64,000 bases of DNA from Eledone cirrhosa (Eukaryota). Below the pieces are notes generated by a model. It had not been told where the DNA came from, searched no databases, and saw nothing but the letters and a program-made list of their open reading frames with translations. Shown piece after piece: positions 31,150 through 58,821 of the stretch. The position numbers and the translations under genes are program-made. Where the stretch lies: positions 271,002,001-271,066,000 of the forward strand of contig OZ024740.1 of NCBI GenBank assembly GCA_964016885.1, in the 5' to 3' direction. The stretch's first letter is position 1, and each line of letters opens with the position of its first letter.

Positions 31150-31608
31150 TTAAGGACAAAATGAAAACACACACACACATAGAACAAACAACCAACCAGT
31201 AACATGTAAATAAACAAATAAATAAACAAATATAAACACACACAGACACTCGGATGTAACACATGCGCAAACTAAGCACACAACACACACAAAAACAAGA
31301 TGGCGTAGGACAGAACAAAGGAGAGGCATAAAAACAAAGAAAAGAATCCCCAGTCACTGAAGAGGTCACAGAATGTGTGACGAAATAACTTTGACAATAT
31401 ATGAACAATCGTCTGGTTGTGGAACCAACCAACCAACCGGAAATTTATAAATTCCTAAATTTATAAATTTAATTTATAATAAATCGAAGTGAAAACAACT
31501 GGTGCGTGTGTTTCTTATTGGCAACATGACCCTCCCAAAGTATAACAATATCGGTTTCAACACACGTTTTCAGATAAAGAATCTTGCTAAACAAATTCAG
31601 AAACGAAA
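31150..31608 (+). mobile_element. Penelope-like pseudo-LTR/3' fragment, same family as 47966-50158
   Basis: Colinear with 49695-50158; degenerate hammerhead at 31353-31395; ends in (TA)n. Confidence 0.88.
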
Positions 31609-31717
31609 TATATATATATATATATATATATATATATATATATATATATATATATATATATATATATATATATATATGGAGGAAGTTATAGTTCACTTGA
31701 AGCATTGTGTAATGAGG

Positions 31718-32089
31718 TATAAACGTTTGTATATGTATAATAAAGCCAAAACAATGCAGGTATGGACATAGAATAAAGAATGCAAATGCAAAAGATATTG
31801 TTGATAATTAGTCTTTTACCTTAGATTTATTTAAATGTCCTTAATTTTCTAGATAATATCTCTTCTTCGGAGGGAAGTAAAGCGGTTAAACCTTGCCAAG
31901 CTATTTAGAACACTGGTTTAACCGCTTTACTTCCCTCCGAAGAAGAGATATTATCTCGAAAATTAAAGACATTTAAATAAATCTAAAGTAAAAGACTAAT
32001 TGTCAACAATATCTTTTGCATTTGCATTCTTTATTCTATGTCCATACCTGCATTGTTTTGGCTTTATTATACATATATAATCGTTTATA
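31718..32089. repeat. fold-back inverted repeat (~175-bp arms, 22-nt loop) with degenerate hammerhead motif
   Basis: Arms 31718-31892 and 31915-32089; CCGAAGA-A-GAGAT-att-ATCTC-GAAA-ATTA at 31937. Confidence 0.9.
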
Positions 32090-32121
32090 TATATATATAT
32101 ATATATATATATATATATATA

Positions 32122-32305
32122 CAATGATATTAAATAAATGGAAACTATATTTATAAAACCATATTTATTTTATTATATATATTTCAAGGGCAACCAAGAC
32201 AACATGGTACGCTTTCATCGGATAAAATACAAAGTTTGTTTTATAAATAGAGACATACCCCTGAAAATCATACCTTATCGGTTGGAAATTCACTGGATAG
32301 TGGAA
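32122..32305 (-). mobile_element. PLE-type terminal fragment with hammerhead motif (32166-32229, core CCGAUGA)
   Basis: Homologous to 39200-39380. Confidence 0.7.
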
Positions 32306-32599
32306 ATATATTAGGGATTATTCAAACTTATGTGTGAATATGCAAATGAATATGTAAATTATTGATAAACAACCGTTTATTTAAATGATACAGGAGAAAG
32401 AAAGAGAAAAAAAGGGAGAGAGAAAAAATAAAAAATATTACGAGATAGATAGAGAGAAGAAATTAACAAGAGGATTAATAGAACTCATGTAACGTTAATT
32501 TGGGGGAATGTATTCTAAGTATATATCTACTAATGGTACGTGTATTTACGATTAATTAGTTGTTAAAATTCTTTTCTAATATAATATTTACTGTTATAA

Positions 32600-32845
32600 G
32601 TAGATAGAAAAATAGATAGAAAAATAGATAGAAAAATAAATAGATAGAAAAATAAATAAAAAAATAAATAATAGAAAAATAGATACAAAAATAGATACAA
32701 AAATAAATAGATAGAAAAATAGATAGAAAAATAGATAGAAAAATAAATAATAGAAAAATAGATAGAAAAATAAATAGATAGAAAAATAAATAGGAAAATA
32801 AATCAATAAATAGATAAATAGATAAATAGATAAATAAATGGATAG
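32600..32845. repeat. (AAAAATAGATAG)n-like minisatellite
   Basis: Direct reading. Confidence 0.9.
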
Positions 32846-57299: not shown

Positions 57300-57604
57300 T
57301 ATATATATATGTATATATATATATATGTGAGAATGAAGTAATTTCGTCGGAAAGGTCCAGGAAAAAAGAGTGCTCTATGTAGGTTACAGAGTTTAATAGT
57401 TATGTAATAAACAACATAAGATAATTATTTCATTTACCAGTGGTTTCTTGAAAGCAAACAAAATTTGCTTTCAATCATCAGAATGAAAAAATCCTGGTGT
57501 ATTTATTGACAGTGGATTTTAAAAACAAATATATAATCTATATGAAAGTGAGGCTGGAAAAGGAAGAAGGAAAGGAAAAAGAATAAGTATAAAAGTAGAT
57601 AAAC

Positions 57605-58375
57605 AGACATGCACACACACGCGCACACACACACACACGCGCACACATGTATACATACACACATATATACATATATATATATACATACACACATATATAC
57701 ACATACACATATATATATATACATATACATACATACACATACATATATATATACATATCCATACATACACATACACACAAATACACAAACACACACATGC
57801 ATATACATATATATATATATATATATATACACACACATAATCATACATATATACACACGTACATACACACACATACATACACACATATATACACAGACAT
57901 ACATACGCACACACAAATATAGACATATGTACACACACCTACATACGCACACACACAATTAATTATAAGAAAAAATAATAATAAAAAATAAAAATAAAAT
58001 TAAAAAACGATGGATGACCATATAATGCTATAGGCCGTCACATAAAAATAAAAATAAAAATTATACGGCTTAAGAAAATTAAAATTAAAATAATTATAAA
58101 GTTGACAGCGATACCGGAAAGGACACAAATGAATGAACAAACACACGTGGTAAGCAATACACACATTTACACATACACATACATATATATAAATATATAC
58201 ATACACAGACACACACATACACACACATATACATACATATATATACACATATATATATACACATATATACACATATATACATATATATACATATATATAT
58301 ATATATACACACACACACACATACATATATATATATATATATATATATATATATATATATATATATATATACGTA
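57605..58375. repeat. degenerate (CA/TA)n low-complexity arrays
   Basis: Direct reading. Confidence 0.9.
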
Positions 58376-58403
58376 TGTGTGTAATATTCATTCTTGTATA
58401 AAA

Positions 58404-58520
58404 TTCACCTTGATATATATTTATCCTTATCGATCCCAGAGGGCTCGATAAGGCTAAATATATATCAAGGTGAAAGCAGCGATTCTTTGCTTAAACTTTA
58501 ATCTGTTATTTTAATAAATA
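58404..58520 (+). mobile_element. short fold-back (hairpin 58404-58474) running into the 3' half of the CAGA hammerhead family
   Basis: TTCACCTTGATATATATTTA...TAAATATATATCAAGGTGAA followed by AGCAGCGATTCTTTGCTTAAACT. Confidence 0.75.
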
Positions 58521-58657
58521 TATGTGTGTATATATATATATATATACATACATATATATATACATACACTCACTCACACACACACAGACATATATATATA
58601 TATATATATATATATATATATATATATATATATATATATATATATATATATATTTAC

Positions 58658-58821
58658 ATATTCATTAGTTAAGCAAAACAAAACCACAAACTTCACAAGG
58701 AAGACATTATTAAAAGATTGTCAACATATTTTAGTTTGATGTAAGGAATGTTTGATGTAAAATATGTTGACAATCTTTTAATGTCTTCCTTGTGGTCTTG
58801 TTTTGCTTAACTAATGAATAT
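58658..58821. repeat. imperfect fold-back adjacent to (TA)n
   Basis: Arms 58658-58732 and 58759-58821. Confidence 0.8.

Follow-up and report, generated by a model that had tools for sequence, protein, structure and literature searches.

A 64,000-nucleotide stretch of the genome of Eledone cirrhosa (assembly GCA_964016885.1, contig OZ024740.1, positions 271,002,001 to 271,066,000 of the forward strand; hereafter the window) carries numerous inverted-arm structures. They are ordinary scars of Penelope-like elements (PLEs): 5'-truncated, head-to-head insertions of such elements, plus one passenger without an open reading frame (ORF), in (TA)n tracts. A previous inspection of the letters alone (the sequence-only reading) had listed ten of these structures between 31150 and 58821 and had proposed that they form by fold-back, for example when a cDNA snaps back and is re-copied at a (TA)n break. 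Self-BLAST recovered all ten, with arm identities of 83-100%, and they comprise eight families, named A to H here (two structures each from A and B, one from each of the others), as the claim of several arm families would have it. The 3' ends of all their arms point outward, also as described. Proximity to (TA)n, said to be nearly general, holds for nine of the ten structures, which, tails counted, are bordered on either outer side by (TA)n or TA-rich sequence; 58404-58521 has such a border on the right only, with (TA)n 33 nt off on the left.

When the ends of the arms were compared within each family, every family was found to end at one of two fixed points before the (TA)n: S, the end of the pseudo-long terminal repeat (pLTR), or T, which is S plus a tail of 42-190 nt. 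The comparison involved 25-30 top-matching loci per family from a genome search, 20 of which were extended; once three duplicates had been removed, 222 loci remained, which are the top matches to each query and not a random sample. An adjacent inverted partner was present at 104 loci, 72 had no partner within 60 nt, and 46 were not settled; an inverted product is therefore the usual outcome (104/176 resolved loci), in agreement with the sequence-only reading. The 104 pairs included 86 with one T and one S end, a single T/T pair, no S/S pair, and 17 with one end unclassified, so that T/S accounts for 86/87 of the pairs in which both ends are classifiable. If E and F, whose queries were biased, are left out, the ratio T/S:T/T:S/S is 48:1:0. 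Family D contributed 15 T/S pairs, no T/T and no S/S. Among 29 G loci selected by their tail, 14 had an S partner, none a T partner, 14 were partnerless, and one was of another kind. Unselected sequence gave the same picture: inspection by eye of 60 evenly spaced 10-kb background tiles (600 kb, weighted to the largest contigs) detected 16 T/S pairs, 4 tail-only. (TA)n flanks both sides of 80 of the 86 pairs, and simple T/S pairs make up nine of the ten structures listed in the window. The idea that different pLTR alleles gave rise to the T and the S arms was rejected, as no allele sorts with arm type, bar junction-edge artefacts in F.

The relative length of the two arms was also examined. The S arm is 5'-longer in 29 of 70 T/S pairs made of single pieces, with the reverse in 17; the arms of the remaining 24 are equal (19 of these pairs in F). 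The T arm consists of tail only in 17 of the 29 S-longer pairs, 11 of which come from the query-biased family E, and in 5 of the 14 tail-selected G pairs; a search for tail-only arms in family B returned none. The window harbors one such pair (36072-36288), absent from the earlier list, whose arms have no sequence in common. Snap-back and re-copying as the general route is contradicted by these data: in 29 of the 46 informative single-piece pairs the tail lies on the 5'-shorter arm and is absent from the longer one, and a copy of the long arm cannot hold sequence that the long arm lacks.

Paired arms were discordant at only 22 of 254 polymorphic-site comparisons, where random arms would be expected to give 105.7 (the data came from 35 comparisons, a few of them at one and the same complex locus), and the large pair of the window was discordant at 0 of 20 sites. 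Hence, a single RNA or source copy underlies both arms, and an origin from different RNAs of a mixed pool is rejected; later conversion between arms may be another source of the shared haplotype. Family C holds 11 of the 22 discordant sites, which is explained by selection: its two G/A sites recur across several haplotypes, and the matched arms were chosen for the alleles of the query. Recurrent G-to-A differences between C arms are seen at window positions 31967 and 31987 (equivalents in L061-L090 and L306-L335), both within TAAGG, and either a mutational hot spot or query selection only is possible. At another family C pair, L081, the arms differ at 25/414 sites and at 3/6 polymorphic sites, and this locus is a possible two-template insertion.

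Junctions were analyzed separately in F and in the remaining families. In 48 non-F junctions, BLAST alignments of the arms overlap by at least 2 nt in 27 and by at least 4 nt in 14, 9 are nearly blunt, and 12 contain inserts; random joins would give overlaps of at least 2 nt in 17% and of at least 4 nt in 2.2%. In around 20 of 30 family F loci, the two arms both end between S-71 and S-69, where stem I of the hammerhead has its 5' edge, with varied junction inserts. A TATA box located 29 nt upstream of S-71 suggests run-off from a short RNA. Two points count against run-off: none of 13 near-full-length F copies with upstream pLTR or tail sequence starts or stops at S-71 (by eye), and the query of this family excluded shorter T arms. 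No TATA was found at the 5'-end cluster in the other families.

The best fit to these observations, with a probability that we place at about 0.6, is twin target-primed reverse transcription from two start sites, followed by microhomology joining. The GIY-YIG endonuclease would probably cut both strands of a (TA)n tract, and each 3' end would then prime reverse transcription on one element RNA, or on RNAs of one source copy, one break end starting at T and the other at S. Both cDNAs would stop early, at variable points, and would be joined by a few complementary bases or by filler, each being filled in on the other. Overlapping cDNAs would give a fold-back appearance, while a T cDNA that stops inside the tail would leave no inverted repeat. 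A single start per break side would yield 3' ends that face outward, a T paired with an S, arms of unconstrained length and microhomology joins, and palindromic centres would form where two like-strand cDNAs can pair. Biochemical precedent exists for part of this scheme. In vitro, the anole PLE PAc cleaves the two strands of AT-rich DNA and extends them, and reverse transcription begins close to the ORF start, at two internal sites lying on either side of the tail; its protein is a predicted dimer, and hammerhead cleavage is dispensable (Frangieh et al. 2024, PMC11167929).

Several considerations weigh against twin priming. The intermediate was not observed, and every biochemical step is inferred from what was seen directly, namely family identity, the two ends, the T/S rule, tail-only arms, the shared haplotype, the excess of microhomology and (TA)n targeting. 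The PLE studied in vitro belongs to a different clade (Poseidon), and the available text of that study neither reports inverted products nor ties the two start sites to inverted insertions (PMC11167929). The shared haplotype and the palindromic junction centres (24 equal pairs) suit hairpin models equally. No adjacent partner lies within 60 nt at 72 of the 176 resolved loci, one end is unclassified in 17 of 104 pairs, and one pair is T/T. If a single RNA served both reverse transcriptases (RTs), strand displacement would be demanded in the 17 T-longer pairs. Lastly, choosing loci as top query matches is not random sampling, and the junction overlaps, being BLAST overlaps, are not all exact matches.

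An explanation that we consider unlikely, without being far-fetched, is that a self-primed hairpin or palindromic DNA copy, made by antisense RNA self-priming or by snap-back, is cut at S in one arm by the endonuclease and left at T in the other before integration. Junction palindromes have indeed been read as self-priming on an antisense template (Arkhipova 2013, PMC3846280), the tail has been ascribed to endonuclease-mediated resolution of an intermediate (Craig et al. 2021, PMC8557442), and recognition by the Drosophila virilis endonuclease depends on the tail (cited in PMC11167929). Arms of one haplotype are expected from a hairpin, and trimming of either arm could also produce tail-only partners. 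However, the two ends coincide in vitro with the sites where RT starts on nicked target DNA (PMC11167929), 12 of 48 junctions carry inserted bases in the manner of end joining, and the model requires an unobserved free DNA intermediate plus a precise cut in one arm, repeated in every one of the eight families although their tails range over 42-190 nt. Simple snap-back of a target-primed cDNA, re-copied, is improbable and could act as a minority path only: it agrees with the 17 T-longer and the 24 equal pairs, and 58404-58438, which mirrors its own junction, is the only one that looks like a true fold-back copy, but it cannot accommodate the 29 pairs with the tail on the shorter arm and missing on the longer, nor the existence of pairs without overlap, window 36072-36288 among them.

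More doubtful still is the idea that the short F hairpins are master elements copied whole, as non-autonomous retroelements resembling miniature inverted-repeat transposable elements (MITEs). Joining at S-71 to S-69 in about two thirds of the F loci (~20/30), with a few recurring junction sequences, is what such masters would produce; against them, junction class is unlinked to tail variant, inserts range from 0 to 18 nt, no arm mismatch is common to loci beyond junction-edge alignment artefacts, and the other families are left unexplained. Assembly or read-chimera artefacts are scarcely credible. Logan contigs and restriction site-associated DNA (RAD) reads, too fragmented, do not bridge the junction at 43770, and X1/X2 may be the assembly's own sample. 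Nevertheless, arms differ by 2-17% with indels and end at family-specific S and T sites, the structures recur on many contigs with different flanks, and a tail on one arm only is not producible by a chimera.

A wider proposal combines obligatory PLE twin priming, two fixed starts (one per break side), F cDNAs that run off a short TATA-driven hammerhead-plus-tail RNA in a strong-stop-like manner, and some 10^5 scars; for this joint reading our confidence falls slightly short of an even chance. If true, obligatory twin priming would account for tail, head-to-head copy and pairs without overlap alike, across Hydra-type, Neptune/Nematis-type and ORF-less retrozyme-like passengers. From the T/S rule and the tail-only arms follows a clear-cut prediction that can be tested and that tells twin priming apart from self-priming.

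The link to PLEs postulated by the sequence-only reading was borne out, as seven of the eight arm families were traced to ORFs with RT and GIY-YIG endonuclease. Judged by their sequence, seven families are PLEs, five of them of Hydra type, and the eighth is an ORF-less hammerhead tandem; clade names are based on motifs. Family A has an ORF with RT and, at its C terminus, a GIY-YIG domain, in which Pfam matched RVT_1 only (E 2e-4, below the cut-off) and the endonuclease was recognized by motif and by the names of homologues; the closest named protein, from Octopus vulgaris, shows 67% identity. A single ORF with RT and endonuclease is present in B, C, E and F, while G and H carry both in broken frames. 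In their natural ORFs, B, E, F, G and H share a CxCX5C linker, lack CCHH and carry CxxC and CxH in the endonuclease, and these families are also inserted in (TA)n; DKT, and RWR in place of RWK, are found in B, E and F, the sequences of G and H stopping short of this region. The Hydra clade (Craig et al. 2021) is alike in its CxCX5C, its lack of CCHH, its CxxC/CxH, its C-terminal endonuclease and its (TA)n insertion, but has RWK and is generally below 3 kb, whereas B, with a long 3' untranslated region, reaches around 4 kb in the layout of L290. Of the motifs that mark the Neptune and Nematis clades (a CX2-5CxxC linker plus CCHH, and DKG), family A has a CX4CxxC linker plus CCHH, and family C has DKG, CCHH and a reduced linker; both may belong to one or other of these two clades.

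A partial tandem that forms the pLTR, with the tail leading into the ORF start, is seen in B (L290), in E (L301) and in 9 of 30 F loci; in near-full-length copies the tail reaches the ORF start some 45-50 nt further on. Family D has a period of ~495 nt, partial tandems of at most ~1.4 units in the loci seen, and a type I hammerhead; no PLE ORF was detected in 30 loci or in two extended loci. As two consecutive units with complete hammerheads, which define retrozymes, were not seen in these loci, D is described as retrozyme-like only. MITE or Foldback DNA transposons, marked by fixed terminal inverted repeats and symmetric ends, were discarded because arm lengths vary freely, the ends are asymmetric (T versus S) and the parents encode RT.

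Hammerhead motifs were sought with a type I descriptor (a CUGANGA, GAAA, UH core with three helices). In 31150-58821, the strict version gave 5 matches with a stem II of at least 3 and 6 with at least 2 (means of 0 and 0.05 in 40 shuffles), and a slightly relaxed version gave 8. A scan with Rfam returned no hammerhead family among 84 matches at E<=1, only microsatellite-driven miRNA matches. The statement that most structures contain or adjoin hammerheads was overstated: canonical cores lie in or beside four of the ten (39198, 40001, 44056 and 44686) and variant CCGA cores in two more (31718 and 43321), while none is intact in 39860, 50770, 58404 and 58658. With the relaxed descriptor, motifs were detected at 23/30 loci in A, 30/30 in B, 15/30 in C, 17/30 in D, 29/30 in F and 4/25 in E, most E arms being too short; G gave 0/25, and H 2/25, both from neighbouring elements. 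Inspection of G and H by eye (L166, L204) detected hammerhead-like motifs whose helix II is very long (~75-100 nt) and whose helix III is a CAATTG palindrome; clusters of 5' ends lie near S-152 in G and near S-127 in H.

Fold z-scores of the hammerheads are mostly weak. In a read-through transcript over both arms, a long duplex is predicted in which the arms pair, the hammerhead is buried and stem I is missing, and in F and A stem I is predicted to be well formed only in the isolated motif and weak once the 3' flank is added. Cleavage was rejected as the setter of 5' ends, which do not cluster at predicted cut sites; since arms run through the predicted cleavage site, the RNA template is likely uncut. 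Hammerheads are passengers of the pLTR, and nothing in the analysis speaks for the functional ribozyme or double-stranded RNA cassettes that the sequence-only reading had inferred. Further hammerhead or hammerhead-like motifs of other families were seen beside (TA)n at 57160-57290 (-) and 36428-36485 (-).

Genome-wide context (3.0 Gb in 1796 contigs) was provided by the background tiles, in which clusters of more than four overlapping matches were dropped as satellites. The enrichment at (TA)n implied by the sequence-only reading was confirmed, as 36 of 62 inverted-repeat events lie within 25 nt of (TA)n, compared with 5.4 expected. The tiles also contain 44 hammerheads, versus 0-3 in shuffles, and 38 of them have (TA)n within 250 nt downstream (12.7 expected); a descriptor-positive hammerhead lies inside only 8 of the 36 TA-adjacent events. 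In the region described as a dense cluster, 8 TA-adjacent events in 27.75 kb represent ~5x background, but the whole window reaches only ~2x, the region was chosen post hoc, and the left half of the window has no such event. The probability of at least 8 events in three random tiles is P = 0.002, for a region picked after the fact. The region is a local cluster of a genome-wide phenomenon. Scaled up roughly from 600 kb, the 3.0-Gb genome would contain ~180,000 inverted insertions and ~220,000 hammerhead motifs.

The overall pattern has been published. An inverted 5'-truncated copy, a one-sided tail and (TA)n targeting were described by Craig et al. (2021, PMC8557442), and large inverted repeats in Drosophila Penelope by Schostak et al. 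(2008, PMC2377424). Insertion units of endonuclease-bearing PLEs (PMC8557442, PMC3846280, PMC2377424) resemble ours in the head-to-head inverted 5'-truncated copy that adjoins the 5' end, the partial tandems, the often one-sided tail, the (TA)n targets and the palindromes at some junctions. Differences are that published tails measure 30-40 nt, compared with 42-190 nt here, and that here the one-tail rule is near absolute (86/87) and tail-only partners without an inverted repeat are common, counts of this kind being absent from the available text of those accounts, which explain the structure by self-priming or by endonuclease resolution. The hammerheads resemble PLE type I hammerheads in their pLTR location and short palindromic helix III (Cervera and de la Peña 2014, PMC4209133), where opposite-strand pairs 100-700 bp apart were already reported; unlike those, several families here have CCGA or CAGA cores or a very long helix II. 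Family D recalls animal non-LTR retrozymes in its ORF-less tandem unit with a type I hammerhead (Cervera and de la Peña 2020, PMC7229834; Li et al. 2026, bioRxiv 10.64898/2026.07.22.740005), but its ~495-nt unit occurs in at most ~1.4 copies, arranged head-to-head with the PLE T/S signature. Retrozymes have been argued to be PLE derivatives (bioRxiv 10.64898/2026.07.22.740005), and the T/S signature of family D, which has no ORF, supports at the level of insertions a role of PLE machinery in mobilizing retrozyme-like RNAs in trans. In repeat annotations, elements of this sort might be filed wrongly under MITEs or unknowns; the annotation of Octopus vulgaris lists Penelope families, with hammerheads unmentioned in its available text (PMC13282606).

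What is added here is the two fixed 3' ends per family, the T/S counts, the tail on the shorter arm and the twin-priming reading. No statement of the T/S count or of that reading was found in the literature searched, the scope of which left out most subscription papers and supplements. In LINE-1 twin priming, said to have been described by Ostertag and Kazazian in 2001, both target ends reportedly prime one RNA and a 5' inversion is joined by microhomology; the second primer is said to anneal internally at random, with little duplication. In contrast, both starts are fixed 3' sites in the elements studied here, and overlap therefore gives long inverted repeats. The scars constitute a large natural dataset on the passage from nicked target and PLE RNA to finished insertion, a step called unvalidated in PMC11167929, and they are a possible source of long double-stranded RNA.

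The features of the window that relate to these insertions are collected in Table 1.

Table 1. PLE-related insertions and associated hammerheads in the window (window coordinates; S-n, position relative to S).
Feature	Position	Strand	Details
Family A solo 3' end	31150..31608	+	T end (64-nt tail) at (TA)n; degenerate hammerhead
Family C pair	31678..32089		left arm (-) with 42-nt tail, 5'-shorter (S-172); right arm (+) tailless (S-195)
Hammerhead, family C pair	31839-31873	-	variant CCGAAGA
Older family-B-like 3' end	32127..32232	-	S end; no partner found
Hammerhead, older family-B-like S end	32166-32229		CCGATGA
Family E pair without inverted repeat	36072..36288		between two (TA)n tracts; S arm (-) 36072-36273 and 17-nt tail-only arm (+)
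Family B (older subfamily) pair	39189..39640		left arm S; right arm with ~90-nt tail
Hammerheads, older family B pair	39239-39304; 39437-39502	-; +	canonical
Family A mini pair	39803..39889		tail arm (-) and 15-nt S arm (+); without hammerhead
Family F pair	40001..40203		66-nt tail on right arm; both arms from S-71, where stem I of the hammerhead has its 5' edge, with AGCT at the centre
Hammerheads, family F pair	40020-40070; 40067-40117	-; +	
Family D pair (ORF-less ~495-nt tandem unit)	43321..44020		long S arm (-); shorter arm (+) with 79-nt tail
Hammerhead, long S arm of family D pair	near 43497-43577		CCGATGA
Family B pair	44056..44634		tail arm (-) 44060-44159; + arm with pLTR end, tail and ORF start, then jump to 3' pLTR (S end)
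Hammerhead, + arm of family B pair	44527-44592		
Family A large pair	44686..50157		long S arm (-) 44686-47968; shorter arm (+) 47969-50157 with 64-nt tail
ORF remnants (RT and C-terminal endonuclease), family A large pair	45086-46435; 46894-48018; 47968-49698	-; -; +	
Hammerheads, family A large pair	44842-44884; 49902-49944		
Family G pair	50611..51989		tail arm (-) 50611-50909, 168-nt tail, 5'-shorter; long S arm (+) with expanded (TTTATT)n
Further family E head-to-head pair	52069..53587		T arm (-) 52069-52760; interrupted + arm 52818-53587
Hammerhead, further family E pair	52169-52219		variant CAGAAGA
Hammerhead of a further family	57428..57488	-	canonical type I, beside (TA)n; present in background tiles as well
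Family E tail fragment joined to S arm	58404..58521		tail fragment (-); S arm (+)
Family H pair	58658..59011		S arm (-) 58658-58751; 5'-shorter arm (+) with ~180-nt tail; lacking the hammerhead

Other elements were also detected in the window. Three related copies of a non-LTR retrotransposon (9914-12923, 24805-28281 and 29174-30853, all +), which we take to be R4/Dong-like, contain RT and a C-terminal restriction-like endonuclease, with a zf-RVT match; they are bounded by (ACAT)n tracts, and one appears nested in another. A decayed non-LTR element with RT (Pfam RVT_1) occupies 54758-57100 (-), beside a GIY-YIG fragment at 53986-54757. GIY-YIG fragments matching Pfam PF01541 (20509-20925, +; 53986-54390, -) belong to further PLE families outside the eight. 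A perfect palindrome with 16-bp arms is found at 60441-60472, not beside (TA)n. An abundant SINE-like repeat (short interspersed element) of ~200 bp is present in both orientations at 550-930, 4150-5030, 6780-6980, 12870-13060, 16760-18530, 34240-34430, 41926-42121 and 63080-63700, and tRNA-like tandem heads lie at 40814-41206.

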